This document shows positions 3,049 to 20,795 of a stretch of 27,704 bases of DNA, piece after piece. Numbering within the stretch: position 1 is the stretch's first letter; every line of letters starts with the position of its first letter. The notes under the pieces were generated by a model. It was not told the origin of the DNA and did not search any database. It saw only the letters and a list, made by a program, of their open reading frames with translations. This stretch comes from Gammaproteobacteria bacterium. Lineage in GTDB: Bacteria > Pseudomonadota > Gammaproteobacteria > Magnimaribacterales > TMED112. Location of the stretch: NCBI GenBank assembly GCA_042090165.1, contig JBELJV010000004.1, forward strand, positions 1 to 27,704, in the 5' to 3' direction. The position numbers and the translations under genes are program-made.

Positions 3049-4398
3049 ATGAACGATTGGAAGAACAAAACCATATACCAAATATATCCACGAAGTTTTT
3101 TTGATTCCTCCAATTCTGGAGTTGGTGACCTAAAAGGAATCACTTCAAAAGTTAAATACATAAGAGATCTTGGGGTTGATTATGTATGGATATCTCCCTT
3201 TTTTAAATCACCTCAAAAAGATTTTGGCTACGATATTTCAGACTATAGAAAAGTAGATGATATTTTTGGAAGCAATCACGACTTTTATAAATTGCTTGAA
3301 GTTTTTCATAAAAATGGTTTGAAAGTTATTACAGATTTAGTGTTAAGCCACACATCTGATGAACATCCATGGTTTGTTGAAAGCCAACAAAGCCAAAATT
3401 CAAAATACAGTGATTGGTATGTATGGGCTGATGGCCAAGAAGGCAGTCCACCAAATAATTGGTTATCAGTTTTTGGTGGAAGTGCTTGGCAATGGTGCAA
3501 GCATAGGAACCAATTTTATTTACATAATTTTTTAAGATCTCAAGCAGATCTAAATTTTCATAACACAGAAGTGCAAGCACAAATGCTGGATGAAATTAAA
3601 TTTTGGCTAGACGCTGGTGTGGATGGCTTTAGATTTGATGTAATTAATTTTCTATTTCATGATCATGAATTACGCGATAACCCTCCCAAAGACCCAAAGT
3701 TAGTTAGACCGCTTGGTTTCAATAAAGACAATCCCTATGGACTGCAAGAACATATTTATGACAATACAAGACCGGAAATGCTTCCTTACTTAGAGAAAAT
3801 TAGACGACTTCTTGATGAATATGATGCTATCTCACTTGGTGAAATTGTAGCTGAACACCCATTTTCAACCATCGGAGAATACTCAAATGAACGAAGGCTG
3901 CATATGGCATACTGTTTTGAGTTTCTGTCCGATGAGTTTAATTATGATTCTGTTGATGAGGTTGTAGAAAATTTTCATAAAAAATATCCACAGAGTTGGC
4001 CTTGTTGGTCTTTTAGTAATCACGACTCGTCACGCATTGCTTCACGGATAGCTCGTGATCCAAAAGAACTTATGGCTAAACTTCTGTCACTTAAAGGCAC
4101 TGTATGCATATATCAGGGTGAGGAATTAGGTCTAAAAGATACTGATATTGCCTTTGAAGATCTGCAAGATCCATTTGGTAAAAATTTTTGGCCTGACTTC
4201 AAAGGCAGAGATGGGTGTAGAACACCTATTCCTTGGGAAGATACCAAAATAAATTTTGGATTTTCAGAAGCAAAACCTTGGTTGCCCATGGATCCGTCGG
4301 CTAAAAACTTAACTGTAAACATTCAAGAACAAAAGAGTGATTCGATGCTTAATTTCACAAGACAAGTAATTGCTAAGAGAAAAGGTATCGCCACCTAA
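3049..4398 (+). CDS. GH13 alpha-glucosidase (oligo-1,6-glucosidase-like group), cytoplasmic, apparently lacking the C-terminal beta domain
   Basis: IYQIYPRSFFDS, QKDFGYDISDY, QADLN, GFRFD (nucleophile), GEIV (acid/base), SNHD, YQGEELG, RDGCRTP. ATG 3049 preferred over the track's TTG 3016 because homology begins at MNDW. Confidence 0.88.
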   Translation: MNDWKNKTIYQIYPRSFFDSSNSGVGDLKGITSKVKYIRDLGVDYVWISPFFKSPQKDFGYDISDYRKVDDIFGSNHDFYKLLEVFHKNGLKVITDLVLSHTSDEHPWFVESQQSQNSKYSDWYVWADGQEGSPPNNWLSVFGGSAWQWCKHRNQFYLHNFLRSQADLNFHNTEVQAQMLDEIKFWLDAGVDGFRFDVINFLFHDHELRDNPPKDPKLVRPLGFNKDNPYGLQEHIYDNTRPEMLPYLEKIRRLLDEYDAISLGEIVAEHPFSTIGEYSNERRLHMAYCFEFLSDEFNYDSVDEVVENFHKKYPQSWPCWSFSNHDSSRIASRIARDPKELMAKLLSLKGTVCIYQGEELGLKDTDIAFEDLQDPFGKNFWPDFKGRDGCRTPIPWEDTKINFGFSEAKPWLPMDPSAKNLTVNIQEQKSDSMLNFTRQVIAKRKGIAT

Positions 4399-6356: not shown

Positions 6357-7724
6357 ATGAATACAAACAATTATGTTGGATGGGAAGAATGGGTGAGTTT
6401 ACCAGAATTAAACCTACCTGCACTTATTGCAAAAACTGATACAGGTGCAGAAACTTCTGCATTACATGCATTTAATATTCAAGTATTTGGTAAGGAAAAT
6501 AACCAAATGGTGAGGTTTGGAATTAACCCTATAGAAAGCGATGAGCGATACTCTGTTTTTTGTTCAGCCAAGCTAATCGATCAAAGAAATGTGACCTCAT
6601 CCAACGGCATCACTGAGCTTAGGTACGTAATTGAAACAGAACTTGAGATCGGTGAAGTAAAAAGAAAGGTTCCAATTACACTTACAAATAGAGAAAACAT
6701 GAAATATAAAATGATTATTGGTAGAAGTGCCCTCGATGGATTTCAAATTTCCCCTGATAAAAGCTTCTTGCAAGATGAGCTATCTTTCGACTTTTATAAA
6801 AAAGCAAAAAACTACAACTACCGAAGAGCCCTTAGAATTGGTATTTTAAGCCTTGAACCCAATAATTACTCAAATCTTAAAATCATTGAAGCAGCAGAGA
6901 AAAATGGTCATTTTTGTGAAATTTTAAACACCAAACGTTGTTATTTAAATATCGAATATGATAATCCTGAAATTCACTATGATGGAAAGATTCTACCCCA
7001 TTACGACGTTATTATCCCTCGAATTGGCTCATCCATCACAAGATATGGAATGGCAGTTGTAAGGCAGTTTGAGGCAATTGGTACTTTTTGTTTAAATTCT
7101 TCGTCCTCAATTGGCATGTCAAGAGATAAGTTAGCCGCTCACCAAACTCTGGCGTTACATAAAATCCCAATGCCAGATACTGCATTTGCAAACTCTCCAA
7201 AAGATACTAAACATATCGTTGATATGACTACTGGAGCACCTTTGGTTGTAAAGCTACTTGAAAGCTCACAAGGCAAAGGGGTTATTCTAGCCGAAACAAA
7301 AAAAGCTGCATCAAGTGTAATTAGTGCTTTTCAAAAACTTCATGCACCATTTATTGTTCAAGACTTTGTTAAAGATTCAAATGGTGCAGACTTAAGATTA
7401 TTTGTGATTGGAGGTAAAGTAGTTGCAAGCATGATGAGATACGCTTCTGATGGAGATTTTAGGTCAAATTTACATGCAGGCGGATCAGCGTCCAAAGTTA
7501 AAATTACAAAAGAGGAAAGGCAAATAGCCAAACAAGCAGCAAAAGCTATGGGATTGAACATTGCTGGTGTTGATATTCTAAGATCTGATGAAGGTCCAAA
7601 AGTACTTGAAGTTAACAGCTCACCAGGGCTACAAGGCATTGAAAACGTCAATAAAATTAACATTGCAGGTAAAATTATTGATTACATTGAAAGACGATTA
7701 GGCCTTGCCAAAAAGCAAAGTTAA
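6357..7724 (+). CDS. rimK: RimB-like retropepsin-type protease domain fused to RimK ATP-grasp glutamate ligase
   Basis: N-terminal ~150 aa: VGWEEWV, AKTDTGAETSALHA, SSNG, MIIGR. C-terminal ~300 aa: IIPRIG, SRDKL, PLVVKLLESSQGKGV, FRSNLHAGG, GVDILRS, EVNSSPGL. Confidence 0.9.
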   Translation: MNTNNYVGWEEWVSLPELNLPALIAKTDTGAETSALHAFNIQVFGKENNQMVRFGINPIESDERYSVFCSAKLIDQRNVTSSNGITELRYVIETELEIGEVKRKVPITLTNRENMKYKMIIGRSALDGFQISPDKSFLQDELSFDFYKKAKNYNYRRALRIGILSLEPNNYSNLKIIEAAEKNGHFCEILNTKRCYLNIEYDNPEIHYDGKILPHYDVIIPRIGSSITRYGMAVVRQFEAIGTFCLNSSSSIGMSRDKLAAHQTLALHKIPMPDTAFANSPKDTKHIVDMTTGAPLVVKLLESSQGKGVILAETKKAASSVISAFQKLHAPFIVQDFVKDSNGADLRLFVIGGKVVASMMRYASDGDFRSNLHAGGSASKVKITKEERQIAKQAAKAMGLNIAGVDILRSDEGPKVLEVNSSPGLQGIENVNKINIAGKIIDYIERRLGLAKKQS

Positions 7725-7920
7725 ATTGGTTGAGCTACTGGCTCAAAACTGGAACCAGCTTATTCCCTATTTTAAGAAATTAGACTATTAATTTATTCTC
7801 TAGACTGAAAAACTTTATTTACTCTGCAAAAAGAGGTTTTTTACCCACTATATATCTTGATACATAAAAAATGTTTTTGTTTTTTCAAGAAGTTTATTAA
7901 AAGTTATGGAAAATAAAACA

Positions 7921-7949
7921 AAAAAAAAGGCCGGTAACCCGGCCTTTTT
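7921..7949 (-). terminator. Intrinsic terminator (probably bidirectional) downstream of TBDR1
   Basis: Stem GGCCGG 7929-7934 / CCGGCC 7939-7944, loop TAAC, long A-run on the left (U-tract on minus) and T5 on the right. Confidence 0.9.
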
Positions 7950-7965
7950 AAATAATATCAAACTA

Positions 7966-10900
7966 TTATAAGCTATATCTAAATCCAAAATATGTATATC
8001 TACTATCCCAGACTCTTGCATATGACTGAGCTGTGTAATGAGCACCTGGTACAGGCTCATTTTTACAGGTAGGACAAAATGGAGGATTTTGATCGCCTAC
8101 GTTATCCACACCCATGTACACACTTAGATTATCATTCAACTGATACCTAAGCTGTACATCTGTATAGACCATAGAGTCAACTGCATTAAGATGATATGCA
8201 TCTGGAGCTTGACCAACATCATCTCGAGCATCACCATAATAGTTGCTTTGCACTGATAGAAGCCATTCATTCAGTGTATAAACAGCGTTAAACTTAACAA
8301 TGTCTTCGTTGTATCCTACTTCACCTACGTAATCAAAAGGTGTAGATTCAGATGTTGTTTGGAAAACATGCTTATCTCTCAATGTGTAAATACCATTGAC
8401 TCTAAGTTCGCCAGGTACTTTTAAGTCAAAGTAACCAAGATCTCTAAAAGTATATGCAAAAGCTAAATCATAACCAGCTGTTTCATAGAATGACTGGTTG
8501 ATGCCATAAGAATACCAATATCTTAGTTTACCTGTTGGGAAACGCTCATGAGCACTACATTGAGCAACGTTTGGATAATTTTCAGAGTTATAACACTCGT
8601 TAATTAATCTTGAAGCAGATACAGAACCGATTACATCATCAATTTGAATGTTGTAATAATCTAAACTTAAAGCAAATTCTTCAAGATATGTTGGAGTATA
8701 TACAAAACCTACAGTTGTTGTTTCAGCAGTCTCTACATCTAAATTAGGGTTACCACCTATGAAACCAGAAATAGTCTGAATATCAGGCTGTGAGTAGTTG
8801 AAACCTGGAGTAGTTAAACCAGAATCTTGGTCAAACGAACCTTGTGCAGCAGTAGCAGCGATTCTAGAATCTGCTAGACAGTTAGCTATAACTATTGAGC
8901 TCATATTTGGCTCAGCGTCAGGGTTACCAACACCAGCACATGGATCAGCAATTGATGTGTAAGATTGAGCTTGACCAGAATACAACTCATCAATATTTGG
9001 CGCTCTGGTGGATTCAGCAACTACCGTTCTAAATCTAAAGTCATCAGTTACTGTCCAGTTAACTCCAAATTTTGATGCACCTACTCTTCCAGCTGTTGAA
9101 TAATCATCGGATCTATAAGCAGCTTCTAGTGTTAAATCTTGCACTAGGAAAACATCTGACACAAGTGGTACTAACACCTCGACATACGCGCCCTCAACGC
9201 TGTAAGAGCCGACCGTTGCAGGAGTTACATTTGAGCCATGAAGTCCAGCTTGTTGAAGTGAATCTGGAATATCAGCACCTGTTTCTGTTCTTCTCTCAAC
9301 ACCTGCAGCAAAACCTGCATCAAGTCCCAAAAGATTGAAGTCTCCGGTTACGTTAAAAGCCATAACCTCTTGTGTATTTTTACTTTGACGTAAAGTAATA
9401 GCTTTTACGTAATTTACAGCTTCATCTGATGCAGCCATCAAACCGAACAAATTAATAGGAACACAGCCCTGTGCTCTAGCAACGACGTCAGTACAAATTA
9501 CATTACCATTTGCATCTGTTGTTGCATTTAAGGCATTAGCCATATTAATTGCGTTGTAATTTTGACTGTACTGCATTCTGTCAGAAACACCGTATTGATA
9601 GTATGCATCCCATTCCATACCATTTGAGAATGTACCAACGGCACCTAATGCGGCCCTGAATGTTTCTCTTGTGTTGGACGAACCTCTGGTTCCGAACTCA
9701 AGAAGTCTTCTGATAAAAGGAACTTGAAGCTCATTACCATCAGCATCAACGTACATATTTGCTATTGGGTTGCCATCAGCATCAACTGCTTGAACACCGC
9801 CTTGGGCAGCTACAGCAGCATCTCTTATAGCAGCTGGCATGTACGGGTTAGAAATATTGTAACCAAATGTACCTAATCCACCGAATACATCTTCAGAACT
9901 AAATGGAACAGGTTCGAATTCTGATTGAGAGTCAACACTTGTATATGAGAATTCAGCAAACATTTCAGTTCCATTATCAAATTGGTAATTCGTTGCATTG
10001 AAAACACTATATCTTTCTAGTGGAACTTCAAGTGCTCTAAAATACGTTCTGTTAAAACCACAATTTGATGATCCACCTGCGTCAGACCAGCCAACAACTG
10101 TATCAGACTGCGTAACTGAGTAAGGACCTCTGCTTGAGCAGTCAAATGTTAACATTCCAGCAGAATCACTGTTATTTCCAGATACAAAGAATCTTCCTTG
10201 CGGAACATAAGAAGAATAGCCAGGGTCAGAGATCAAAGAATCATAAGGAGCTCCGAAATCTGCACCATAGTAATAACCATAGTAGAAAAGATCTCTGCCT
10301 GTATATCCTGTTCTGTCTCTAGCCATAACTCTGCCTTGCTCATCTGTTCTGATATTAAATACAGAGTTACCTTTACCATCTGCAAAGTTAGCACCAAAAG
10401 TCATGGAATATAATCTTGTCTCACCATCTCCTTTGTTGTACTTTCCGTCCATTGCCTCAAAAGTAAAACCTTCGAAATCATTTTTAAGGTTAATGTTAAT
10501 TACACCAGCTACAGCATCAGATCCGTAAACAGCAGATGCCCCACCAGTAATAACCTCTAAGTTAGCTATCAAATCAGTAGGTATTGAGTTCAAATCAACA
10601 GTTCCAGTGCCTGGGACACCACCTACCCATCTTCTACCATTAACAAGAGTAAGAGTTCTTCCATCCCCTAAACCTCTTAAGTCAACAGTTTGAAGACCAG
10701 AAGAACCAACAGTAAAGTTAGTGTTACCTCTTGATAACCCCTCTCCAGCCTGTGGTAATTCATTTAAAATATCATAAACGTTTATAGATCCAGTGAGCTC
10801 AATTTGATCTTCACCAAGAGTAATCATTGGTGTAGCTGAACTTAAATTATCTGCACGTTTAATCCTTGAACCAGTGATGACAATTTCTTCAACGCTATCA

Positions 10901-10998
10901 TCAACAGATTCGGAGCTATCAACCTCATCGCTTTGGGCATTCACCATGCCTACAGTAGATAGAGTCAATATGCTCAGTAAAAAGTATTTTTTAAACAT
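7966..10998 (-). CDS. TonB-dependent outer-membrane receptor 1 (1010 aa)
   Basis: Signal peptide, EEIVITGSRI TonB-box region, plug motifs DLRGLG, TLVNGRR, GGASAVYGSDAVAGVIN, C-terminal YFGFRYSL beta-strand. SD AAGGAGA at 11010-11004. Confidence 0.95.
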   Translation of the reverse strand: MFKKYFLLSILTLSTVGMVNAQSDEVDSSESVDDSVEEIVITGSRIKRADNLSSATPMITLGEDQIELTGSINVYDILNELPQAGEGLSRGNTNFTVGSSGLQTVDLRGLGDGRTLTLVNGRRWVGGVPGTGTVDLNSIPTDLIANLEVITGGASAVYGSDAVAGVININLKNDFEGFTFEAMDGKYNKGDGETRLYSMTFGANFADGKGNSVFNIRTDEQGRVMARDRTGYTGRDLFYYGYYYGADFGAPYDSLISDPGYSSYVPQGRFFVSGNNSDSAGMLTFDCSSRGPYSVTQSDTVVGWSDAGGSSNCGFNRTYFRALEVPLERYSVFNATNYQFDNGTEMFAEFSYTSVDSQSEFEPVPFSSEDVFGGLGTFGYNISNPYMPAAIRDAAVAAQGGVQAVDADGNPIANMYVDADGNELQVPFIRRLLEFGTRGSSNTRETFRAALGAVGTFSNGMEWDAYYQYGVSDRMQYSQNYNAINMANALNATTDANGNVICTDVVARAQGCVPINLFGLMAASDEAVNYVKAITLRQSKNTQEVMAFNVTGDFNLLGLDAGFAAGVERRTETGADIPDSLQQAGLHGSNVTPATVGSYSVEGAYVEVLVPLVSDVFLVQDLTLEAAYRSDDYSTAGRVGASKFGVNWTVTDDFRFRTVVAESTRAPNIDELYSGQAQSYTSIADPCAGVGNPDAEPNMSSIVIANCLADSRIAATAAQGSFDQDSGLTTPGFNYSQPDIQTISGFIGGNPNLDVETAETTTVGFVYTPTYLEEFALSLDYYNIQIDDVIGSVSASRLINECYNSENYPNVAQCSAHERFPTGKLRYWYSYGINQSFYETAGYDLAFAYTFRDLGYFDLKVPGELRVNGIYTLRDKHVFQTTSESTPFDYVGEVGYNEDIVKFNAVYTLNEWLLSVQSNYYGDARDDVGQAPDAYHLNAVDSMVYTDVQLRYQLNDNLSVYMGVDNVGDQNPPFCPTCKNEPVPGAHYTAQSYARVWDSRYTYFGFRYSL

Positions 10999-11193
10999 AA
11001 GATTCTCCTTATATGTATGTATTTATTAAACAATTAAAAAATTGATTAAACTTCATTGTGAACTGTTTTAGCCAATAATGCTACAAATATGTGAATTTTT
11101 TTAAGTTTTTTTGTATTCATATATTTATATTAAATAACGATGGATTTTTGTTAATCACAGTGAATGGTTTAACTTGTTTTAAAGCTGGTAAGG

Positions 11194-11269
11194 TGGTGGA
11201 GCTGACTGGGATTGAACCAGCTACCTTCTGCGTGCCACGCAGACGCTCTCCCAAATGAGCTACAGCCCC
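11194..11269 (-). tRNA. tRNA-Ala(GGC), 76 nt, encoded CCA
   Basis: Full cloverleaf: acceptor GGGGCTG/CAGCTCC with G3:U70, D-stem GCTC/GAGC, anticodon arm TCTGC-GTGGCAC-GCAGA, T-loop TTCAATC, A73-CCA. Confidence 0.97.
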
Positions 11270-11392
11270 ATCTCATTATTGTGCCATATCCTTTATAATA
11301 ATGCGCTCTTCCAGTCTGGCTATGGTTTAATAAATTGTGTATATTTTAACAATAAAATTTGTTTTTAAATTTAAAAAGGGAGGACTTTTTTC

Positions 11393-14329
11393 ATGTCCAA
11401 GTTAAAATACTTACTTTTATTAGTGTGTGCTGCTATCTCTGTAAATGCACAAGAGACAAACAGCAGCAATGATGTAGAAGAAATAGTGGTCACTGGTACC
11501 CAAATTAAAGGGGCCAGAATTAACGAAGCATTACCTGTAACAGTTATTACGGCTGATGATATTGATGACAGAGGCATTAACTCTGGTGATGAACTTCTTG
11601 CAACCTTAACCGAACAAGGCGTTAACCAGTTCAACGACGTTGGTTCCAACGGCGGTGGTGTTAACGCATCAAGAGGTGATGTCGGTGCTTTTGATATTAG
11701 GTCAATAGGTACAGGCAATTCACTTGTTCTTCTCAATGGTAGAAGAATGATTGCCACGCCTTCTTACCAAACAGAAGAAGTTGGCGGCAGCTTTGTTCCT
11801 GTTGCTACAGTGAACTCAAACGTCATTCCGGTTTCTCTTGTAGATCGAGTTGAAATCTTAAGAGACGGTGCTGGTGCTATTTATGGTACTGATGCTGTAG
11901 CTGGTGTCGTTAACACCGTTCTTGATGTCGACTATGTTGGTTTTGAAATGAGAGGAAGATTTCAAAACTGGCAGCACTTCGACAGAGATGATCACAAATT
12001 CTCTATGAAATGGGGTGAAAACTTCGGCAACACCAATGTTTCAATGTTTTTTAGTTTCTATGACAGAGACAGAGTAGCAGCAGCAGAAGACGAAATCATG
12101 GGTAGATGTGATTATCGTGATTTAGTCCCAGAACAATTTGCAAATGATGCATTCTACCGATGTTCATCAGTATCAGCATGGGCTCAATTTGATATGGCTG
12201 GAACAGCCCCATATACAGCAAGTGACGGTGAATTTACAATCAGAGCTACTGGAGATTCTCGATGTGCTCTCGACCTAGGCAATGGTACTTGTGCATCCCC
12301 ATCTACAAGTAGATACAGACATAACTGGAATGGGCAAAGAGATGTTCTTGGTGACGTGCAAAGACATAATATGTTCTTTTTCCTAAATCATGATTTAGGA
12401 GATGGACGAGAAGTATTCGCAGAAATTGGACAATATAGAAGCAAATACAATGGTAACAGACATTCGTCTTCATCATTTTCCTCTGTGAGACATGTTGTTC
12501 CAGCAACAAACCCATACAACTTCACTCGCCGAGCATTGCTGATCGATTTTTACAGGTTTGTAGATGCAGGTCCAAGAATTGTTGACAACGATAAGGAAAC
12601 AAACAGGTTGCTTTATGGTATGCGTGGTGATCTTAATTCAGGATGGTCATGGGAATCAGCTGTTTCTTACTCATGGGCAGAAGCATTTGATGTAACGCAT
12701 AATAGAGTATCAAATACAATAGTAGATGGCTTACTGCATGCTAGCGGGCCAAACGCTTACAACCCATTCAATGGTGGTGGTGTTTATGTATCTCCTACTG
12801 TTTCGCATAACCCCGTGGACTTAACTGATGGTGGTATTGCACCAGCTTTAGTGGATGTTTATAGAAAGAATGAAAGAACTATGACAACTTTTGACTTAAA
12901 AATGTCAAAAGCTGACTGGTGGGAAACTAATGCTGGGTTTATTGGTTTGGCATTGGGTCTAGAAACAAGACGAGATACTTTTTTTGATGATAGAGACCCA
13001 AGACTTGATGGCACCATTGTGTTCACAGAAAGAAAAACATCTGGTGCGCTTTCAACACGTGCAATCGATACATATCCATATGTATCTGATATTGTTAATA
13101 GCTCACCTACTCCTGATAGCGGGGGGAGCAGATTGGTTAACTCTCTCTACATAGAATTCGATGTTCCGGTAGTAAGTCCTGAAATGAATGTTCCTTTGGT
13201 TGAGCAGCTTGACCTTCAAGTAGCTTGGAGGAAAGAATCATACTCTGATTTCGAGGGTACAAGTGTACCAAGAGTTGCATTCGGTTGGCGAGTTAATGAC
13301 ATCTTGAAACTAAGAGGTTCTTTCCAAGAAACGTTCAGAGCACCAAACCTAATTACGATCAATGAAAGCATGGTCGTAAGAAGCAATACAAGAATTGATG
13401 CAGCTCTTAGATATGCAAATGGTCTTGGCATTAATTCAAATTCTGAATACTCTGTTCAAAGACAAGCATCAGGCAGTAGTAACTTAGAAGCCGAAACTTC
13501 TGACAACACCACTGTTGGTTTTGTTTTAGAACCTACAGATAACATAACTTTGACGTACGATGTATGGAGTATTGAGTCAGAAAATACTATTGGTTTGTTT
13601 GGCGAAGAAAACCATATGCTTCTGGATCTCTATCTAAGATTAGAACAGAATAATATAAATGATTGTTCTTCTGTAGTTGGAAATCCTGCTGTGTTGAGAC
13701 AAGCAGCTGATAATCCAGATTCATTTTTGGCTGCAGGACTTTGTCCAATAGGTCTAGCAGAAAGAGTCGAGGATAACTATGCTAATCTGAACAATAGAAC
13801 TATTGAAGGTTGGGACAGTGGGTTCTACTACAATACTGAGACACCACTTGGTAAATTGTCTTTCAAGCATCAAATTTCCCAGCTTACAATGAAAGAGCAA
13901 GAATATGGACCTACACTTGCTCTACTTGATGCGGAAATGAATAGCGGAAATCTTCCGATGACAGCTCTGCTTGGGTTTGGAGATATTCTTGCTGTTAATG
14001 GCGCACCAAAAAGAAAAACTTATACATCTCTAAGGCTTAGAAATGGTGATTGGGCCTTAGGCATAAACCAAAGGTCAAGAAGCACTGTGTACGAAGACAG
14101 AACTATTGAAGATGCCGGAGAAATGTGGGCTGTGGTTCCATTTAAACCAAGTAATGTATATGTGGACTACTACACAGAAACACCAAATACTGATCTTAGA
14201 ATTAGGCTAGGTGTAAATAACTGGTATGATAGAAGAGCTCCTCTTGCATCATCACGAATGGGTTATTTTGAAGACTTAGATAACAATTTAAGAAGAAACT
14301 TCTATCTTGACCTAAGGTTCACATACTAA
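11393..14329 (+). CDS. TonB-dependent outer-membrane receptor 2 (978 aa)
   Basis: Signal peptide, EEIVVTGTQI, LVLLNGRR, RVEILRDGAGAIYGTDAVAGVVN, C-terminal FYLDLRFTY. SD AGGGAGGA at 11377-11384. Confidence 0.95.
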   Translation: MSKLKYLLLLVCAAISVNAQETNSSNDVEEIVVTGTQIKGARINEALPVTVITADDIDDRGINSGDELLATLTEQGVNQFNDVGSNGGGVNASRGDVGAFDIRSIGTGNSLVLLNGRRMIATPSYQTEEVGGSFVPVATVNSNVIPVSLVDRVEILRDGAGAIYGTDAVAGVVNTVLDVDYVGFEMRGRFQNWQHFDRDDHKFSMKWGENFGNTNVSMFFSFYDRDRVAAAEDEIMGRCDYRDLVPEQFANDAFYRCSSVSAWAQFDMAGTAPYTASDGEFTIRATGDSRCALDLGNGTCASPSTSRYRHNWNGQRDVLGDVQRHNMFFFLNHDLGDGREVFAEIGQYRSKYNGNRHSSSSFSSVRHVVPATNPYNFTRRALLIDFYRFVDAGPRIVDNDKETNRLLYGMRGDLNSGWSWESAVSYSWAEAFDVTHNRVSNTIVDGLLHASGPNAYNPFNGGGVYVSPTVSHNPVDLTDGGIAPALVDVYRKNERTMTTFDLKMSKADWWETNAGFIGLALGLETRRDTFFDDRDPRLDGTIVFTERKTSGALSTRAIDTYPYVSDIVNSSPTPDSGGSRLVNSLYIEFDVPVVSPEMNVPLVEQLDLQVAWRKESYSDFEGTSVPRVAFGWRVNDILKLRGSFQETFRAPNLITINESMVVRSNTRIDAALRYANGLGINSNSEYSVQRQASGSSNLEAETSDNTTVGFVLEPTDNITLTYDVWSIESENTIGLFGEENHMLLDLYLRLEQNNINDCSSVVGNPAVLRQAADNPDSFLAAGLCPIGLAERVEDNYANLNNRTIEGWDSGFYYNTETPLGKLSFKHQISQLTMKEQEYGPTLALLDAEMNSGNLPMTALLGFGDILAVNGAPKRKTYTSLRLRNGDWALGINQRSRSTVYEDRTIEDAGEMWAVVPFKPSNVYVDYYTETPNTDLRIRLGVNNWYDRRAPLASSRMGYFEDLDNNLRRNFYLDLRFTY

Positions 14330-14341
14330 ATCTCATTACTT

Positions 14342-14371
14342 AAGGCGCGGTTAATTTCGCGCCTTTTTTTT
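14342..14371 (+). terminator. Intrinsic terminator between TBDR2 and the DASS gene
   Basis: AAGGCGCG-gttaattt-CGCGCCTT followed by a T-run ending 2 nt before the DASS ATG. Confidence 0.88.
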
Positions 14372-14373
14372 GA

Positions 14374-15843
14374 ATGAAAGACCGTACCAACCTAAAATCA
14401 ATCGGCTTTGTTGCTGGTATGTTTTTCTTTGCTCTGACATTATTTACAACTTCTCCAGCTGGTCTCACTATTGAGGCTTGGCATGTAGCAGGAGTTGTCA
14501 TCATGATGGCTTTTTGGTGGGCAACTGAGGCAATTCCACTTCCTGTTACTGCGCTACTTCCACTTGCTTTATTTCCTCTTCTTCAAGTTTATGGACCTTA
14601 TGTTGATGGTTTTACACCAAAAGAAGCATTTACTATTGCCGCTAAACCTTATGCACACCCAAACATATATTTATTTCTTGGTGGTTTTATTCTTGCACTG
14701 GCTATTGAAAAGGTAAATCTTCATAAGCGACTTGCATTAAAAATGCTATTAATGGTTGGCACTAATGCTAAATATTTGATAGGTGGTTTCATGTTAATCA
14801 GTGCCTTGATTAGTATGTGGATTATGAATACATCGACTACATTAATGCTTCTTCCAATTGCTTTGGCGATTGCTGCAGTAGTCAAAGACACCACAACATC
14901 ATTAGATGAACAACAATTCAATAACTTTCAAACATCGTTATTGCTAGGAGTAGCATATGCAGCGACCATAGGTGGCATGGCAACCATTATAGGAACTGGC
15001 CCCAATCTACTGGTAAAAAGTTTTATTGAAGATGAAGGTGTAAAAGTGTTTTTCTTTGATTGGATGTTATTAGCTACACCTATCTCGGCAGTTATGTTGT
15101 TCATTGGTTGGTTATTGTTAACCAATGTTATCTTTCCATTAAAAATAGAAGGTTCTGCTGAAACAACAAAGTCACTTGAGCAAATGTATGCATCACTTGG
15201 CAAAGTATCTACCGATGAACGAAGAGTCTTTTTTATTTTTGTAATAACGGCATTGGCTTGGATGTCCAGCAAAGCCTTGGTTCTAATTCCCTTCCTAGAG
15301 GGTTTAACAGATTATGCTATTGCTGTGTTTGCTGCATTAACTATTTTCATCACACGTTCTGAGAAAGGTACTGGACTGATAGATTGGAAAACAACAAAAG
15401 AACTGCCTTGGGGAATACTTTTATTATTCGGTGGTGGGTTATCAATGGCTGGAGCAATTAAAAGCTCAATGCTCGGTGACTGGATTGGGTCCTTTTTCAC
15501 TTCTGACATAAATGCCATTTTATTAATATTTATCATAGTGACTTTAATAGTTTTCTTAACAGAGCTGACAAGCAACCAAGCCACTACAGCAACATTTGTA
15601 CCAATTATGATTGCTATTGCTGGTTCAGATCTAGGTTTAATTTCACAACTTTCAATTCCTGTTGCACTTGCCGCTAGTTGTGCATTTATGTTGCCTGTAG
15701 CAACACCTCCAAATGCCATAGTTTACGGATCGGAAAAATTTACTATAGCTCAAATGATGAGAGCTGGCTTCTACCTGAATGTGGTGGGTATTATTGTTGT
15801 CACAATATTCTCAGCGTACGTATTACCATTAATATTTAACTGA
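14374..15843 (+). CDS. DASS/SLC13 family Na+-coupled anion symporter
   Basis: 489 aa membrane protein. WWATEAIPLPVTALLP, LFLGGF, NLHKRLAL, SMWIMNT, GTGPN, LLLFGGGLS, TELTSNQ, FMLPVATPPNAIVYG. Confidence 0.92.
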   Translation: MKDRTNLKSIGFVAGMFFFALTLFTTSPAGLTIEAWHVAGVVIMMAFWWATEAIPLPVTALLPLALFPLLQVYGPYVDGFTPKEAFTIAAKPYAHPNIYLFLGGFILALAIEKVNLHKRLALKMLLMVGTNAKYLIGGFMLISALISMWIMNTSTTLMLLPIALAIAAVVKDTTTSLDEQQFNNFQTSLLLGVAYAATIGGMATIIGTGPNLLVKSFIEDEGVKVFFFDWMLLATPISAVMLFIGWLLLTNVIFPLKIEGSAETTKSLEQMYASLGKVSTDERRVFFIFVITALAWMSSKALVLIPFLEGLTDYAIAVFAALTIFITRSEKGTGLIDWKTTKELPWGILLLFGGGLSMAGAIKSSMLGDWIGSFFTSDINAILLIFIIVTLIVFLTELTSNQATTATFVPIMIAIAGSDLGLISQLSIPVALAASCAFMLPVATPPNAIVYGSEKFTIAQMMRAGFYLNVVGIIVVTIFSAYVLPLIFN

Positions 15844-17540
15844 TGAGAATTTTTTTAACACTATTATTTGCTTCGATGGTTCATGCTCAAGCAAGCTTGA
15901 TAGATTATGATCATCCATATCATTCAACATACACCAGTAAAGGGATAGTGGTTTCACAGAACTATCTTTCCTCTGATATAGGTGTTGAAATACTTGATCA
16001 AGGTGGCAATGCTATAGATGCAGCAGTTGCCGTTGGTTTCTCGCTTGCAGCCACATTGCCAAGGGCAGGAAATATTGGTGGCGGTGGTTTTATGCAGATT
16101 TATATTGAAAAAGATAAGACAATCTTATCGATAGATTTCCGCTCCACTGCTCCGGCACTAGCAACAGGTGAATTCTACCAAGAACTTAAATCACAAGATG
16201 ATGATGTTACAAGAAAAGGTTACAAGGCAATTGCCGTACCAGGAACAATTGCTGGCCTTTATAAAGCTCATGAACTTTATGGATCACTACCAATGGAAAC
16301 ATTGCTTCAACCAACCATTGATCTTTTAACTGAAGGTGTCCCTATGACACAAGATCTGTACCACGCTATTAACATTGGAAAATATATTAGTGATGATCCT
16401 GAATCGCATAAAATTTATAAAAAGAATTTAGAGCCTAATGTACCATTATTCATTGAGGACCTAAAACAAACATTTATAAAACTTCAAAAATTTGGGCAGG
16501 ATGTTTTTTATCGTGGAGAAATAGCTGATCTAATAGAGAAGGAGATGCTCAAAAACAATGGTTTGATAAGAAAATCCGATTTAGAAAACTATAAAGTCAA
16601 TATCACCCAACCCATCAAAACAACATATAGAGATAAGCAGATTTTCGCCATAGGAGCCCCATCTGGTGGCGGAGTGGTAATACTCACAGCTTTGAATGTG
16701 TTGGAAAACTTTCAATTGAGTGGGCTGGCTCCCAATTCAGCGAGAACATATCACCTTCTTTCAGAGGCATTAAAGTATGGTCATCACAATAGATCAAAAT
16801 TTGTTGGCGATCCAGGGTATTTCAATGTTCCCTACGATATCTTGCTGTCAAAAAAACTGGCAAAAGAAAAGGCAAAGAAAATTAGTCTAACTTCTGCAAC
16901 AAATCCTAAAACTATCAATAAAAATGGAGATCGAATTAACTCTACTTATGAAGAATCAAAAGATACAACTCATTATTCTGTAGTGGATAAAGATGGTAAT
17001 GGCGTATCTGTTACCTACACTCTTGGTTATTCCTTTGGTTCTGGTGTAACAATTCCAGGCACAGGAATGCTTACTAATAACCAAATGAATAATTTTGCCC
17101 ATAGCTATGGGTTGATTGATTCTTATTTTAGAAGTTCCTCTCCAGCGAATAAGTTAGAACCAAGTAAACGACCAATGAGCACAATGACACCAGTCATGGT
17201 TTTCGACAGGGAAGGCAGGTTAGAACTAATAACAGGATCACCAGGAGGATCACAAATACCAGGCGTTGTTTTTCAAGTTCTTGTAAATTACATTGATTTT
17301 GATTTGGACATTGGTGAAGCCTCCATGCTTCCACGTATTCATCAAGACTCTCAAAGCACTGAGCTTAATTTTGAAAAGCATATGAGCAGAGATACACAAC
17401 GTATACTAGAGTCTTATGGTCATAACTTAGAGTTATCGGATACTATGGGAAGTACTCAAAGCATAGCTATCATTGATGGTGTAAGGTTTGGGTACGCTGA
17501 TCTAAGAAGACCAAACGCAAGAGTTAGTGTTCAGAAATAG
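15843..17540 (+). CDS. ggt: Periplasmic gamma-glutamyltransferase-family Ntn hydrolase with an atypical acyl pocket
   Basis: Signal peptide, GGNAIDAAVA, GNIGGGGF, IDFR, autocleavage site D/TTHYS (Thr375), GSPGGSQI. TGATG overlap with the DASS stop. Confidence 0.9.
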   Translation: MRIFLTLLFASMVHAQASLIDYDHPYHSTYTSKGIVVSQNYLSSDIGVEILDQGGNAIDAAVAVGFSLAATLPRAGNIGGGGFMQIYIEKDKTILSIDFRSTAPALATGEFYQELKSQDDDVTRKGYKAIAVPGTIAGLYKAHELYGSLPMETLLQPTIDLLTEGVPMTQDLYHAINIGKYISDDPESHKIYKKNLEPNVPLFIEDLKQTFIKLQKFGQDVFYRGEIADLIEKEMLKNNGLIRKSDLENYKVNITQPIKTTYRDKQIFAIGAPSGGGVVILTALNVLENFQLSGLAPNSARTYHLLSEALKYGHHNRSKFVGDPGYFNVPYDILLSKKLAKEKAKKISLTSATNPKTINKNGDRINSTYEESKDTTHYSVVDKDGNGVSVTYTLGYSFGSGVTIPGTGMLTNNQMNNFAHSYGLIDSYFRSSSPANKLEPSKRPMSTMTPVMVFDREGRLELITGSPGGSQIPGVVFQVLVNYIDFDLDIGEASMLPRIHQDSQSTELNFEKHMSRDTQRILESYGHNLELSDTMGSTQSIAIIDGVRFGYADLRRPNARVSVQK

Positions 17541-18918
17541 TTTTTAAAGCTTTCTGCAGTCTTTCAATAACTAATTCCTTTTTTATTAGATAGAGAGTAG
17601 CATCAAGGTTTGGTGATTTAGCTCGACCAATCAACGCTACTCTTAACGGTAAGCCAATTTTTGGCATAGGCAGCTGCAGCTCTTCTTTAGCCTGCTCAAT
17701 AAGTTTAGCCAAATTATCAACTGTCCACTCTTCTTGGTTAGATAAATTTGAAATAAAGAAATTAAGTACTGTTTCGCTGCCAAGCAGATGTTTTTCAAAA
17801 TCTTTTTCATCATAATTTTGAAAATCTACTATAAAGGGCTTAATGAAGTTTGAAATTTCAGTTAGATTATTGCCACTTCCAATACACAACCTTACTAATT
17901 TTTCTGGATCATGATGAGCATCAAGAGCAAATCTATTCTCATCATTAAAAGGCTTAATTTCTTCTAAAAGTTCTTTATCGCTAAGTTTAGTAATGTAATT
18001 TTGATTAATAAAATTTAATCTTTCTATATCAAACACGGCGCCAGATCTTTGAATGTCCATAAGCTCTAAATTTTCCACCAAGAAATCCATTGAAAATATA
18101 TCTTTTTCTGTCTTTGACCAACCGAGTCTGGCTAGCATATTCAATATTGCATCAGGTAGATAACCTAACTTTTTATAGACCATCAAATCTGTCGCTGCAT
18201 TTCTTTTAGACAGTCTTTTTTTATCTTCGCCCAAGACTAACGGTAGGTGTGCGTAATTGAATCCATCATATCCTAGTGCGTTTATAATTTGAATTTGTCT
18301 AGGTGTATTTGGTAGATGGTCCTCACCTCTAATAATATTAGTAACACCTTGTGCATTATCATCAATAACATTACACAAGTGGTAGGTTGGTGTTCTATTT
18401 GATCTTTGAATAATCAAATCATCAAGCTCTTTGTTAAGAAACTCAATCTTTCCATAGACTGCATCATCTAAGATAGTTGACCCCTCTGTTGGTGTTTTAA
18501 GTCTTACGACTGTTTTCTCATCAGTAATGCCTTTATCGCGGCACAAACCATCATACATAGGCTTTAAACCTTTAGATTCTTGTTCTTTTCGCAGAGCATC
18601 TAATCTCTCTGGACTACATGAACATCGGTAAGCCTTACCGCCTGAAAGTAGTCTATCAATTTCTTGTTTATATAATTCTGATCTTTGACTTTGAAATGTA
18701 GGACTGCCATCAAATGTTAATCCTAGCCAATTTAAACCTTCAATAATTGCATCGGTATATTTGGCATTGGATCTTTCTTGGTCAGTATCTTCTACACGTA
18801 GTAAAAAATCCCCTAAGTGTTTCTTAGCAAAGATATAATTGAATAAAGCAGTTCGCACTCCGCCAATGTGAAGGTGGCCTGTTGGACTTGGTGCAAATCT
18901 TGTTACTACCTTTTTCAT
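17524..18918 (-). CDS. gltX: Glutamyl-tRNA synthetase
   Basis: TRFAPSPTGHLHIGG (HIGH), IRGEDH, KKRLSKR (KMSKS-like), CSC...YDGLC zinc region. ATG 18918 forms a TAATG overlap with the dnaQ stop. Confidence 0.96.
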   Translation of the reverse strand: MKKVVTRFAPSPTGHLHIGGVRTALFNYIFAKKHLGDFLLRVEDTDQERSNAKYTDAIIEGLNWLGLTFDGSPTFQSQRSELYKQEIDRLLSGGKAYRCSCSPERLDALRKEQESKGLKPMYDGLCRDKGITDEKTVVRLKTPTEGSTILDDAVYGKIEFLNKELDDLIIQRSNRTPTYHLCNVIDDNAQGVTNIIRGEDHLPNTPRQIQIINALGYDGFNYAHLPLVLGEDKKRLSKRNAATDLMVYKKLGYLPDAILNMLARLGWSKTEKDIFSMDFLVENLELMDIQRSGAVFDIERLNFINQNYITKLSDKELLEEIKPFNDENRFALDAHHDPEKLVRLCIGSGNNLTEISNFIKPFIVDFQNYDEKDFEKHLLGSETVLNFFISNLSNQEEWTVDNLAKLIEQAKEELQLPMPKIGLPLRVALIGRAKSPNLDATLYLIKKELVIERLQKALKTISEH

Positions 18919-19619
18919 TACCAAGAAATTTCCTTATTTGTTTTTTGGTTAAGTTTTTTTAGAAATTTTTTATGCTTCTGGACATCATTTTCTTCAGCGA
19001 TAAATTTTTTGAACTTAATCTCTTTCAAGTCTTCCTCATTTATTTGTAAATTCTGTATTATTGAATTTTTTTGACTAAGATCGAAGGTTACTTGCCCACC
19101 AGTCAAGTTAAGATATGTGTCGGCAAGTATTTGCGCATCCAGCAGAGCTCCATGATATGTTCGATCATAACCAGAAATTCCCAATCTAGCCGATAATGCG
19201 TTTAAATTGTTGCGTTGCCCAGGAAACATGCTCTGAGCAGTTGTTAATGTATCATAAACTGTGCAGATATCTCGAATATCTTTTACTTCATGATTGGCAA
19301 GTTTAAGTTCGTTATTAAGAAAACCAACATCAAAATCTGCATTATGAATAACTAGTTCTGCTCCTTTTACAAAATTTAAAAAATCATCAGCGATGTCTTT
19401 AAATTTTGGTTTATCTTTTAATTGCTCATTGGTAATGCCTGTAATTTCTTGAGCTTTTTGACTTATTTCTCTGTCATCAGGGTTTAGATAAGTCTGAAAT
19501 TCTTCGCCTGTTTTATTTCTATCAAGTATTTCAACAGCACCTAACTCTATGACACGATCCCCAGTTGCAAAATCTAGTCCTGTTGTCTCTGTATCAAAAG
19601 AAATAATCCTAGCTGGCAT
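18918..19619 (-). CDS. dnaQ: DNA polymerase III epsilon subunit
   Basis: Exo I FDTETTG, Exo II HNADFD, Exo III HGALLDA. ATG 19619 preferred over the track's TTG 19631. Confidence 0.94.
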   Translation of the reverse strand: MPARIISFDTETTGLDFATGDRVIELGAVEILDRNKTGEEFQTYLNPDDREISQKAQEITGITNEQLKDKPKFKDIADDFLNFVKGAELVIHNADFDVGFLNNELKLANHEVKDIRDICTVYDTLTTAQSMFPGQRNNLNALSARLGISGYDRTYHGALLDAQILADTYLNLTGGQVTFDLSQKNSIIQNLQINEEDLKEIKFKKFIAEENDVQKHKKFLKKLNQKTNKEISW

Positions 19620-20043
19620 TTTCGACTCCAAGATTTGCTAAATAATCTGCGCGTTCATTGCCTGGATCACCATCATGCCCCTTTACCCAATGCCAATTTA
19701 CATCCATAACTGATGAAAGTTCTGAAATTTCAATCCACAAATCTTTGTTGGCAACTTGTTTTTTTGATGTGGTTCTCCAATTATTCTTTTTCCAATTAAA
19801 GATCCATTCAGTAATGCCTTGTCTTAAATAATTTGAGTCAGTATAAAGATCTATTGCCTGGTTTGTTTTTCTGAGGTACTTTAGAGCTTCTATGGCTGCC
19901 TGCATCTCCATTTGATTATTTGTTGTATTTGGTTTTCCATCAAAAAGCTCTATCTCTTTTGAATCTAGAATAATGTATGCACCCCATCCGCCAGGACCTG
20001 GGTTACCTTTACAAGCACCATCTGTATATACTTTAATAGACAT
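19609..20043 (-). CDS. rnhA: Ribonuclease HI
   Basis: YTDGACKGNPGPGGW, TNNQME, TDSNY, WVKGH, GNERAD. Confidence 0.96.
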   Translation of the reverse strand: MSIKVYTDGACKGNPGPGGWGAYIILDSKEIELFDGKPNTTNNQMEMQAAIEALKYLRKTNQAIDLYTDSNYLRQGITEWIFNWKKNNWRTTSKKQVANKDLWIEISELSSVMDVNWHWVKGHDGDPGNERADYLANLGVENAS

Positions 20044-20052
20044 TAAGTTTTA

Positions 20053-20058
20053 ATTATA
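20053..20058 (-). promoter_or_regulatory. -10 box TATAAT 9 nt before the rnhA ATG, inside a 20-bp divergent spacer
   Basis: Perfect hexamer on the minus strand, no SD. Confidence 0.5.
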
Positions 20059-20063
20059 AAGTA

Positions 20064-20795
20064 ATGAAGATAGATCACATACATGCTTTTACAGATAATT
20101 ACATTTGGGTTATTAGAAATAAGACTCAAGTCACACTTGTAGACCCTGGTGATCCTGCTCCTGTCCTAAAATTTTTACATGAAAATGACCTAAACCTCCA
20201 AGACATTCTTATTACACATCATCATTGGGATCACATAGGTGGTATTAATCAGCTAAAACCAGTATGTCAGGGCAAAATTTATGGGCCGGATAATCCTAAT
20301 ATAAAAGGTATAGATATTATTTTAAAACAAGATGATAAACTCTCTACTTTGGACGTTAGTTTTGAGGTAATTGAAACACCAGGACATACTCTTGATCATA
20401 TTGCCTTCTATGCTGAGGAAAAGTCTTTAGTTTTTTGTGGCGATACTCTTTTTTCAGGAGGTTGTGGAAGAATGTTTGAAGGTACTTATGATCAGCTTTG
20501 CAATTCACTGCAAAAATTAGCTAATTTACCTGATGAAACTTTTGTTTACTGCACTCATGAATACACGGTAAAAAATTTAGAATTTGTTAGATCAATCATT
20601 AGTGATGACGATGTAGATAATTATTACAGGATCTCACAAAATAAAAGAAATAAAAATGAGCCAACTTTGCCCTCCAGCATTGGTCTTGAAAAAATAATAA
20701 ATCCTTTCTTACTGCACAAGATACCTGATAATCTTAAAAGCCTATCTCGAGTAGATTGCTTTCGAGAATTAAGAATCGCGAAAGATAATTTTTAA
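20064..20795 (+). CDS. gloB: Hydroxyacylglutathione hydrolase (glyoxalase II)
   Basis: DNYIW, THHHWDHIGG, TPGHTLDH, FCGDTLFSGGCGR, HEYT. Confidence 0.94.
   Translation: MKIDHIHAFTDNYIWVIRNKTQVTLVDPGDPAPVLKFLHENDLNLQDILITHHHWDHIGGINQLKPVCQGKIYGPDNPNIKGIDIILKQDDKLSTLDVSFEVIETPGHTLDHIAFYAEEKSLVFCGDTLFSGGCGRMFEGTYDQLCNSLQKLANLPDETFVYCTHEYTVKNLEFVRSIISDDDVDNYYRISQNKRNKNEPTLPSSIGLEKIINPFLLHKIPDNLKSLSRVDCFRELRIAKDNF

Follow-up and report, generated by a model that had tools for sequence, protein, structure and literature searches.

A 27,704-nucleotide stretch of DNA (hereafter the window; contig C15) from a SAR86/Magnimaribacterales metagenome-assembled genome (MAG; 0.9 Mb, 88% complete) carries on its plus strand, in order, genes for a TonB-dependent receptor, a DASS symporter and a gamma-glutamyltransferase (GGT)-family hydrolase, as identified from open reading frames (ORFs) and profile searches. 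We find that the hydrolase keeps the catalytic residues of its family and has an altered site for the alpha-amino group of the donor, and that the three genes are linked throughout much of SAR86. We propose, with moderate confidence, that the module takes up an amide that resembles glutamate but has no free alpha-amine (an N-acylated gamma-(D-)glutamyl peptide is the likeliest), hydrolyses it in the periplasm and imports the acid product through the DASS protein. Glutathione is probably not the substrate of the module; an acidic amide probably is.

Arrangement of the locus

The module is bounded upstream by a tRNA gene and downstream by gltX, dnaQ and rnhA, which lie on the minus strand. Its features are as follows.

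11194..11269 (-): tRNA-Ala(GGC), the upstream boundary of the module (ARAGORN; Rfam RF00005, 59 bits)
11270..11392 (+): AT-rich 5′ region of the receptor gene
11393..14329 (+): TonB-dependent receptor, 978 aa
14342..14373 (+): terminator-like hairpin and T-run, ending at the DASS ATG
14374..15843 (+): DASS/SLC13 symporter, 489 aa
15841..15845 (+): TGATG stop/start overlap of DASS and GGT
15843..17540 (+): GGT-family Ntn hydrolase of the N433 clade (see below), 565 aa, Sec-type signal peptide at residues 1-16

The DASS stop codon (TGA, 15841-15843) shares its A with the GGT start codon (ATG, 15843-15845). These ORFs, their families, the shared orientation and the TGATG overlap had been given in a preliminary description of this DNA made from the letters alone, with which our coordinates and profile searches agree.

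An altered donor pocket in the hydrolase

The hydrolase is a member of the GGT family (MEROPS T03) by its matches to PF01019 (477.6 bits, cut-off 27, 6.8e-143) and TIGR00066 (453 bits, cut-off 357.85), and it aligns end to end with E. coli GGT (379 bits). Pocket residues were counted one by one on a HMMER alignment to E. coli GGT chain 2e0w. This equates Arg100 of the window protein with Arg114 of E. coli GGT, Thr375 with Thr391, Gly395 with Asn411, Gln414 with Gln430, Asn417 with Asp433, Ser446 with Ser462, Thr447 with Ser463 and Gly468/Gly469 with Gly483/Gly484. Positions below follow the E. coli numbering unless they are those of the list.

16965..16967 (+): Thr375 (E. coli Thr391), autoprocessing and catalytic nucleophile, within DTTHYS; invariant in all relatives
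17025..17027 (+): Gly395, for E. coli Asn411, an alpha-amine ligand and the partner of Tyr444 in the lid gate (HMMER alignment; PMC8062742)
17091..17093 (+): Asn417, for E. coli Asp433, which forms a salt bridge with the alpha-ammonium (HMMER alignment; PMC8062742)
17178..17183 (+): Ser446-Thr447 (E. coli Ser462-Ser463), alpha-carboxylate binders; the change of the second Ser to Thr is a mark of the clade

The Thr nucleophile, the oxyanion glycines (also invariant in relatives) and the alpha-carboxylate site formed by Arg114, Ser462 and Ser463 (here Thr) are all kept. The alpha-amine site departs from that of a canonical glutathione-hydrolysing GGT (EC 2.3.2.2 / 3.4.19.13), with Gly for Asn411, Asn for Asp433 and Gln at 430. 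Position 444, a Tyr in E. coli, is Y, L, I, E, R, N, Q, T or V across the N433 clade. A canonical GGT paralogue on contig C71 of the same genome, 35% identical, has Asn/Glu/Asp/Ser-Ser at these positions.

The consequences of such changes have been described in well-studied enzymes. Asp433 of E. coli GGT binds the alpha-amino group of the donor, and the D433N variant abolishes transpeptidation, keeps 82% of hydrolysis and gains glutaryl-7-aminocephalosporanic acid (glutaryl-7-ACA) acylase activity (PMC8062742). A hydrogen bond between Asn411 and Tyr444 forms the lid gate, class IV cephalosporin acylases naturally have Asn at the 433 position, and changing the three corresponding positions together in the B. 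subtilis enzyme raises acylase activity 963-fold (PMC8062742). Judged from its sequence, the window GGT is a specialised paralogue with a neutralised alpha-amino site. The altered pocket reported in the preliminary description is thus upheld by the residue-by-residue alignment, and the neutralised alpha-amino site is supported by the published D433N mutagenesis. By analogy with D433N, the enzyme should be a hydrolase and not a transpeptidase.

The pocket also says something of the acyl group. Because Arg114, Ser462 and Thr463 are kept, a C5 (glutamyl or glutaryl) spacing is favoured over succinyl or oxalyl. Moreover, because position 411 is Gly, position 444 is not conserved and the Asn411-Tyr444 gate is lost, where engineered glutaryl acylases put Tyr at 411, the site suggests room for a substituent on the alpha-carbon. 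An acylated alpha-nitrogen would be the obvious candidate for a group needing such space.

A different reading of the same residues has a plain dicarboxylyl amide or hydroxamate as substrate, such as a siderophore, or a fragment of one, that bears a glutaryl, 2-oxoglutaryl or succinyl group; examples are the 2-oxoglutaryl amides of vibrioferrin- and achromobactin-type siderophores and the succinyl hydroxamates of ferrioxamines. The enzyme would free the dicarboxylate and the DASS protein would import it. DASS and KgtP-like major facilitator superfamily (MFS) carriers typically move 2-oxoglutarate or succinate, which would suit this reading. So would the changes from Asp to Asn and from Glu to Gln, since these turn hydrogen-bond acceptors into donors that may accommodate a 2-oxo or 2-hydroxy group, and D433N-type changes are known to create glutaryl-amide acylase activity (PMC8062742). 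However, engineered glutaryl acylases improve with Tyr at 411, where the window enzyme has Gly, and the geometry of Arg114/Ser462/Thr463 fits a C5 acyl group rather than a C4 or C2 one. We regard such a substrate as possible but improbable; gene neighbourhoods that bear on it are described below.

Conservation of the module within SAR86

We searched 201 genomes of the order and took 12-kb regions from 20 of them. To these were added five SAR86 loci from a species-representative collection, giving 25 loci; some genomes are possibly present in both collections. The receptor, the DASS gene and an N433-type GGT gene are adjacent in 24 of the 25 loci, spread over three (f1, f2 and f3) of the four SAR86 families, and this linkage is far beyond chance. 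In the genus of the window about 23 of 29 genomes have an orthologue-level match. In f1, the family of the window, and in f3 the three genes share one strand, with 0-25 bp between the aligned ends of DASS and GGT. In f2 two GGT genes lie in tandem, one canonical and one of the N433 type, and are oriented convergently with receptor and DASS. The module shifts relative to gltX-dnaQ-rnhA among loci yet stays together.

Every linked GGT, from 95% down to 43% identity, reads R-T-G-Q-N-S-T/S-G-G at the pocket positions, against N/E/D/S in the canonical paralogues. The sole locus without a DASS gene (L051) has a GGT with a degraded pocket (K114, T462, N463). All 24 N433-type GGTs with an intact pocket adjoin a DASS gene, whereas within SAR86 canonical paralogues do so only when in tandem with an N433-type copy. 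The claim that the three genes form one conserved cassette therefore survives the refutation proposed for it, a lack of conserved linkage in relatives, as does, within SAR86, the suggested co-variation of the Asn/Gly pocket with the presence of DASS. Family f4 has the canonical GGT only (five high-quality genomes checked), and its DASS homologue lies elsewhere, without receptor or GGT. The canonical paralogue itself is present in all four families.

The families differ in what else the loci hold. Those of f3 include a periplasmic M20D amidohydrolase, a LysR regulator, a 287-aa esterase-like protein and an EthD-like protein; those of f2 include a PF00144 (AmpH/PBP4B-like) gene; and those of f1 consist of the bare trio. 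A search of the window genome found no orthologues of the f2 and f3 extras, M20D included.

The three genes might be neighbours without a shared substrate, for example a receptor with a ligand of its own beside a DASS-GGT pair with a separate role. A strong terminator between the receptor and DASS-GGT would fit this, as would the f2 GGTs that are convergent with receptor-DASS. However, the adjacency outlasts both the surrounding rearrangements and the inversion of the f2 GGTs, and the pairing of receptor and GGT recurs with orthologues in another bacterial class. We therefore consider unrelated neighbours extremely unlikely.

Another alternative, and the published annotation of SAR86 GGTs, is that the module scavenges glutathione or other gamma-glutamyl peptides for reduced sulfur, with the DASS protein merely serving for uptake of glutamate or some other anion. 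Assimilatory sulfate reduction is lacking in SAR86, and access to glutathione is the role that has been suggested for its GGTs (PMC3358033; bioRxiv 10.1101/2024.03.17.584874). The window protein passes the NCBIfam GGT equivalog cut-off, and the E. coli D433N enzyme retains 82% of its hydrolysis (PMC8062742). Against this, the canonical N/E/D paralogue occurs in the same genome and in all four families, so that an altered copy is not needed, and two of the three alpha-amine ligands have been replaced and have stayed fixed for very long. Moreover, f4 has the same sulfur dependency and no module. Glutathione scavenging is in our judgement very doubtful.

Folate genes and the distribution of the module

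The absence of the module from f4 bears on a further alternative, folate salvage. Here the receptor would import folylpoly-gamma-glutamates or p-aminobenzoyl-polyglutamates, the GGT would act as a periplasmic conjugase and the DASS protein would import the monoglutamate form. The pocket suits an N-acyl-gamma-glutamyl donor, DASS proteins belong to the same ion-transporter superfamily as AbgT, and the module is retained in genomes of about 1 Mb. Pterin_bind ORFs of the size of dihydropteroate synthase (DHPS) were found in 24 of 25 f4 genomes but in no genome of f1 (14 searched), f2 or f3; the Pterin_bind matches of f2 and f3 lie in ORFs of 807-1246 aa that are MetH-like by length only. Since f4 alone has only the canonical GGT and no trio, the module is present in exactly the families without DHPS. 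Moreover, folC passes its cut-off only in f2 and f4 and is missing from f1 and f3, while folA, folB and folK occur in all families. None of the ORFs of the window genome, all of which were searched by phmmer, matches the DHPS of f4 or the FolC of f2 or f4. An independent survey of 2026 likewise predicts that SAR86 is auxotrophic for folate (PMC13408713).

Other candidates for a folate pathway were followed up. A weak Pterin_bind match beside folC in an f2 genome is a TrpA-like protein and not a divergent DHPS, and no DHPS analogue was found beside folB-folK. No BT1/FBT carrier was found in SAR86 except for a weak partial match in f2, and AbgT (PF03806) is absent from 5/5 SAR86 genomes.

Several points tell against folate. 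The complementarity amounts to at most two evolutionary contrasts among four families. DHPS is present in all the alphaproteobacteria that share the receptor-GGT pair and its exact pocket, and the loci there seem catabolic and concerned with D-amino acids. Folate is far bigger than any known DASS substrate, and the M20D (AbgB-like) genes of the f3 loci would destroy folate, not salvage it. The retention of folB and folK without folP is unexplained either way. Salvage of folate is, on balance, quite unlikely.

The N433 clade beyond SAR86

Among the 150 best representatives of clusters at 50% identity, nearly all of the closest carry G/S-x-N together with Ser-Thr, and the bulk carry N-E-D. A tree of 159 sequences was built with FastTree after the signature columns had been removed. 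In this tree 24 of the 25 Asn433 sequences fall in a single clade of 25 tips (SH-like support 99), within which SAR86 forms one subclade (support 97) whose sister group is alphaproteobacterial and metagenomic. The contigs of the nearest cluster representatives are too short for informative gene context. For non-SAR86 genomes with flanking sequence, the GGT adjoins a receptor gene in 5/5, namely a Caulobacter MAG, Sphingorhabdus, Sphingomonas, Phenylobacterium and a Pseudomonadota MAG.

The window receptor has a Plug domain (PF07715, 52 bits) and a barrel (PF00593, 46 bits), as expected of a TonB-dependent receptor, and a Sec-type signal-like sequence at its N-terminus. A domain scan found no STN signalling domain in it, and it does not qualify as a siderophore-type transducer. 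When the Caulobacter, Sphingorhabdus and Sphingomonas receptors were searched against the window genome, the best match was the window receptor, at 33-34% identity over about 1000 aa, compared with 25-27% for the neighbouring receptor paralogue in the window. On these matches the window receptor is orthologous to those found beside N433-type GGTs in Alphaproteobacteria. Because the receptors are orthologous across classes, the receptor-GGT pair appears to be the old core and DASS the partner in SAR86. None of the alphaproteobacterial loci has a DASS gene. In Caulobacter and Phenylobacterium the pair has MFS/Sugar_tr carriers nearby, as would fit the import of an organic acid.

A survey of Sphingomonadales added five N433-type loci to the two already found. 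Of these seven loci, a receptor is present in five, a gene like D-aminoacylase or N-acyl-D-glutamate deacylase in four (PDB 1M7J, 8e-58; 3GIP, 1e-49), a DadA-like D-amino-acid dehydrogenase in three, LysR regulators in three and an M20D amidohydrolase, 51% identical to the SAR86 f3 copy, in two. Canonical N-E-D GGT loci of the same survey are mostly without these neighbours. Since D-aminoacylase-like and D-amino-acid-dehydrogenase-like genes accompany the sister clade, compounds containing D-glutamate are indicated.

These neighbourhoods also contain what can be said further for a plain dicarboxylyl or siderophore-derived substrate. The Caulobacter and Sphingomonas receptor orthologues have STN, and ECF sigma/FecR genes lie beside the Caulobacter one, as with many siderophore receptors. 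Directly 3′ of the Sphingorhabdus N433-type GGT (L066:10637-11902) is a relative of D-threo-3-hydroxyaspartate dehydratase (PDB 3WQC, 3e-122), and 3-hydroxyaspartate is a siderophore building block. However, the regulators beside the locus in SAR86 f3 and in Sphingomonadales are of the LysR type, and the D-aminoacylase-like and DadA-like neighbours would be left without explanation. A Caulobacter GGT has been reported as iron-responsive and could not be tied to the N433 clade.

A number of other observations were made on relatives. One Sphingomonadales operon (L213:2975-13980) comprises genes for a DadA-like protein, a receptor, an N433-type GGT (G/E/N), a second GGT, a dienelactone hydrolase (DLH)-like protein and a 667-aa PGA_cap (CapA-family) protein. 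The last hints at poly-gamma-glutamate as the substrate in that organism. PGA_cap was seen in this one Sphingomonadales locus, and no convincing one was found in SAR86. An N433 subclade of Phenylobacterium and Sphingomonas (L080, L112, L221, P0137, P0140) has Tyr for Arg114 and Ser/Thr at 411/430, which suggests a further shift in specificity; in the Sphingomonas locus L112 this type of GGT is paired with a periplasmic M20D amidohydrolase. In two natural fusion proteins, P0134 and P0154, a GGT is combined with a PF00144 beta-lactamase-family domain (960 aa in all) and with a dienelactone-hydrolase/S9 domain (918 aa), echoing the PF00144-GGT and DLH-GGT neighbourhoods of SAR86 f2 and of locus L213. 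Lastly, tandem arrays of three GGT genes occur in several Sphingomonadales genomes, and in the L225 and L226 arrays all three are canonical (N-E-D).

The symporter

The DASS protein matches the family profile TIGR00785 at 283 bits (cut-off 198.6). Its closest solved relatives are human NaDC1, NaCT and NaDC3, followed by VcINDY, and it aligns over its full length with NaDC1, NaCT and VcINDY. Its two motifs are located as follows.

14824..14832 (+): DASS motif 1, M151-N152-T153 in place of S-N-T
15571..15579 (+): DASS motif 2, S400-N401-Q402

The protein therefore lacks the usual pair of Ser-Asn-Thr/Val motifs, and its first hairpin reads GTGPN, not GTPPN. Human SLC13 proteins have SNT/SNV and most other gammaproteobacterial DASS proteins SNT/SNT. 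In every trio-linked DASS protein, motif 1 opens with Met or Phe where Ser is usual, and the first hairpin reads GT[GA]PN. Motif 2 ends variously in Q, V, M or L among the SAR86 families. We also inspected 30 DASS homologues of other Gammaproteobacteria (39-50% identity). None has a GGT gene within 1.5 kb, one is adjoined by a receptor, and their motifs are mostly SNT. On the first of these counts the link between DASS and GGT is specific to SAR86.

Transcription and flanking sequence

The element 3′ of the receptor gene (hairpin with T-run, 14342-14365) is a strong one, with a 9-bp stem that includes 6 GC pairs and a run of T8, and the stretch up to 14373 ends at the DASS ATG. Because this terminator-like element separates the receptor from DASS, the three genes are not one uniformly transcribed unit. 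Seawater metatranscriptome runs contain up to 78% of the locus's sampled words, and we placed contigs of four runs from two studies on window positions 7900-20100. Word depth is about 120-650 over the module receptor, 30-120 over DASS, 12-30 over GGT and 2-20 over gltX/dnaQ/rnhA, and it drops from about 450 to about 100 across the hairpin. One contig of these RNA libraries (14234-14753) spans the hairpin and another (15577-15907) spans the DASS-GGT overlap. The material is largely RNA, since a hundred-fold depth gradient along one piece of DNA is unlike the flat profile of contaminating DNA. It is likely that the hairpin is an attenuator that sets expression of the receptor above that of DASS and GGT, and the pattern fits an attenuated operon with the receptor in excess and read-through into a translationally coupled DASS-GGT pair. 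The T-run (14355-14373) is itself polymorphic in length, with one extra T behind 14363 in three metatranscriptome runs.

Upstream of the receptor gene, Rfam scans found no riboswitch or any other Rfam element, and a promoter scan gave a result not above that of shuffled sequence. A second, divergent TonB-dependent receptor gene (7966-10998, minus strand, 1010 aa) is the most deeply covered of the region in the seawater metatranscriptome contigs, with a word depth of about 1400-3800 in three of the four runs and about 120-170 in the fourth. A short contig of the assembly (G000 contig C74, locus L003) repeats the 3′ end of the GGT gene, gltX, dnaQ and rnhA at 88-94% identity; its GGT match corresponds to the window's GGT-gltX junction (94% identity), and C74 is probably a co-assembled strain variant and not a duplication. 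Farther upstream in the window, at 6357-7724 (plus strand), one ORF encodes both a RimB-like retropepsin domain (NF052261, 6e-31) and, fused to it, a complete RimK alpha-L-glutamate ligase (NF007764, 355 bits).

Proposed function

Gene content, pocket residues, clade structure, linkage and the graded presence in RNA libraries are observed; the chemistry, the substrate and the symporter cargo of the following scheme we infer. The receptor would carry a scarce or bulky anionic amide into the periplasm. The secreted GGT-family hydrolase would hold its gamma-glutamyl-like acyl part, which would have a free alpha-carboxylate, C5 spacing to the scissile amide and no free alpha-ammonium. The alpha-nitrogen would most likely be acylated, as in the L-Ala-gamma-D-Glu-mDAP stem of peptidoglycan (mDAP, meso-diaminopimelate) or in oligo-gamma-glutamyl chains, and less likely absent, as in glutaryl or 2-oxoglutaryl groups. 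Hydrolysis, not transpeptidation, would free a di- or tricarboxylic acid, and the translationally coupled DASS protein, with its first motif remodelled, would import this acid with an ion gradient. The hairpin 3′ of the receptor gene would keep the receptor in excess over DASS and GGT. Products would be an N-acyl-Glu dicarboxylic acid and, in the peptidoglycan case, diaminopimelate as well, which may be plausible cargo for the remodelled DASS.

N-acylated gamma-glutamyl groups with a free alpha-carboxylate occur in the peptidoglycan stem, in poly- and oligo-gamma-glutamate and in the tails of folate and F420. Within this mechanism, peptides of the peptidoglycan type and oligo-gamma-D-glutamyl peptides are the leading concrete candidates. 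Bb3285-type deacylases are said, after Cummings et al. in 2009, to hydrolyse N-acyl-D-Glu compounds that include L-Xaa-D-Glu dipeptides, and L-Xaa-D-Glu is what would remain after cleavage of gamma-D-Glu-mDAP.

A number of points weigh against this proposal. The identity of the substrate rests on the logic of the pocket and on gene neighbours in distant relatives, and a genome search found no orthologues of the D-aminoacylase-like, DadA-like or M20D genes in the window genome. As the protein scores above the NCBIfam gamma-glutamyltransferase equivalog cut-off, and as E. coli D433N keeps most of its hydrolysis, residual gamma-glutamyl activity may be present. DASS proteins are known to carry sulfate or small di- and tricarboxylates, and we know of no precedent for DASS import of N-acyl-glutamate or diaminopimelate. 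The lack of conservation of motif 2 among the families would be odd for one shared substrate. Lastly, the terminator makes co-transcription of receptor and DASS at best partial, and assembled contigs are no proof of single transcripts.

The preliminary description had the receptor import an N-acyl compound, the hydrolase release a dicarboxylic acyl group from it and the DASS protein import the anion. Its general logic, of receptor import, periplasmic release of an acid and DASS import, is still the best frame, but its specific substrates are not supported. Succinyl- and oxalyl-type groups are disfavoured by the C5 spacing for which the kept Arg114/Ser462/Thr463 argue. In place of plain dicarboxylyl amides, Gly at 411, the lost lid gate and the D-aminoacylase-like, DadA-like and M20D neighbours of the sister clade point to N-acylated gamma-D-glutamyl peptides. 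As for its suggestion of siderophore fragments, neither a tie of the locus to iron nor a Fur-type signal was found, and LysR regulators flank the loci of relatives.

Comparison with known systems

The components are of known kinds, namely a TonB-dependent receptor, a DASS protein and a GGT-family Ntn hydrolase, and their architecture resembles that of other TonB-dependent utilisation loci. Three features are new. A natural and ancient clade of GGTs carries the acylase switch; in two proteobacterial classes this clade is firmly coupled to a dedicated receptor; and its partner in the inner membrane comes from a DASS subclade whose first motif is altered. A literature search found no described locus of TonB-dependent receptor, DASS and GGT, no TonB-dependent folate or muropeptide system and no characterised N433-type GGT.

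With E. coli Ggt (PDB 2DBU, 2E0W) the window enzyme shares family, fold, signal peptide, autoprocessing Thr, oxyanion glycines, carboxylate site and a lid-loop segment of equal length. It differs in the replacement of Asn411 by Gly and of Asp433 by Asn, in the unconserved position 444 and in lying in a putative operon with DASS and receptor genes, whereas the E. coli gene stands alone. Engineered acylases (E. coli D433N; B. subtilis E423Y/E442Q/D445N) and the natural class IV acylases resemble it in Asn at 433 and in Gln at 430/442. This likeness is one of pocket residues; the window clade has Gly at 411/423 where the engineered enzymes have Tyr, and a cephalosporin is unlikely as its natural substrate. 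The B. halodurans 'cephalosporin acylase' 2NLZ is a distant match to the window GGT (1.4e-42).

CapD of Bacillus anthracis (PDB 3G9K), which acts on poly-gamma-D-glutamate, is likewise a GGT-family enzyme, and its donor is an N-acylated gamma-D-glutamyl group. It is a distant match (E 1e-29 for its large chain), likened here by substrate type and that match only, far more distant than E. coli GGT, and serves capsule anchoring in a Gram-positive bacterium. The proposed bond, gamma-D-Glu-X with an acylated alpha-nitrogen, would be that cleaved by MpaA, and genes for deacylases like 3GIP (Bb3285) neighbour the sister-clade GGTs; however, MpaA, the gamma-D-Glu-mDAP amidase of peptidoglycan recycling, is a cytoplasmic M14 metallopeptidase unrelated to GGT, and the window genome has no orthologue of the deacylase.

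Of whole systems, abgABT of E. coli, for use of p-aminobenzoyl-glutamate, also deals with an N-acyl-glutamate compound by means of an amidohydrolase and a carrier of the ion-transporter superfamily, and AbgB-like M20D genes flank the f3 loci. The present module is nevertheless not of this type, as the five SAR86 genomes have no AbgT, the window genome has no M20D orthologue, and a periplasmic Ntn hydrolase and an outer-membrane receptor are involved. TonB-dependent nutrient loci (the Xanthomonas/Caulobacter carbohydrate loci and the BtuB type) share the receptor in excess, the periplasmic hydrolase and the inner-membrane carrier. Their substrates are glycans or corrinoids, unlike the acidic amide predicted here.

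Significance

SAR86 is an abundant ocean bacterium whose GGT genes have so far been lumped together as glutathione-degrading, and a second, ancient GGT clade is now set apart from these. Three of the four SAR86 families lack folP, two of them folC as well, which bears directly on cultivation. If the folate reading were true, the module would be the first folate system to depend on TonB, its GGT the first bacterial folate conjugase of that family and its DASS the first to carry a vitamin, and it would be part of why SAR86 resists cultivation. To return to the reading that we prefer, that of an N-acylated gamma-(D-)glutamyl substrate, D-glutamyl peptides from peptidoglycan have long been discussed as part of the marine dissolved-organic-nitrogen pool. 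Identification of the substrate would give the first natural function for D433N-type GGT variants, known only from engineering, would widen the substrate range of DASS, and would supply the marine dissolved-organic-nitrogen cycle with a further, defined route.

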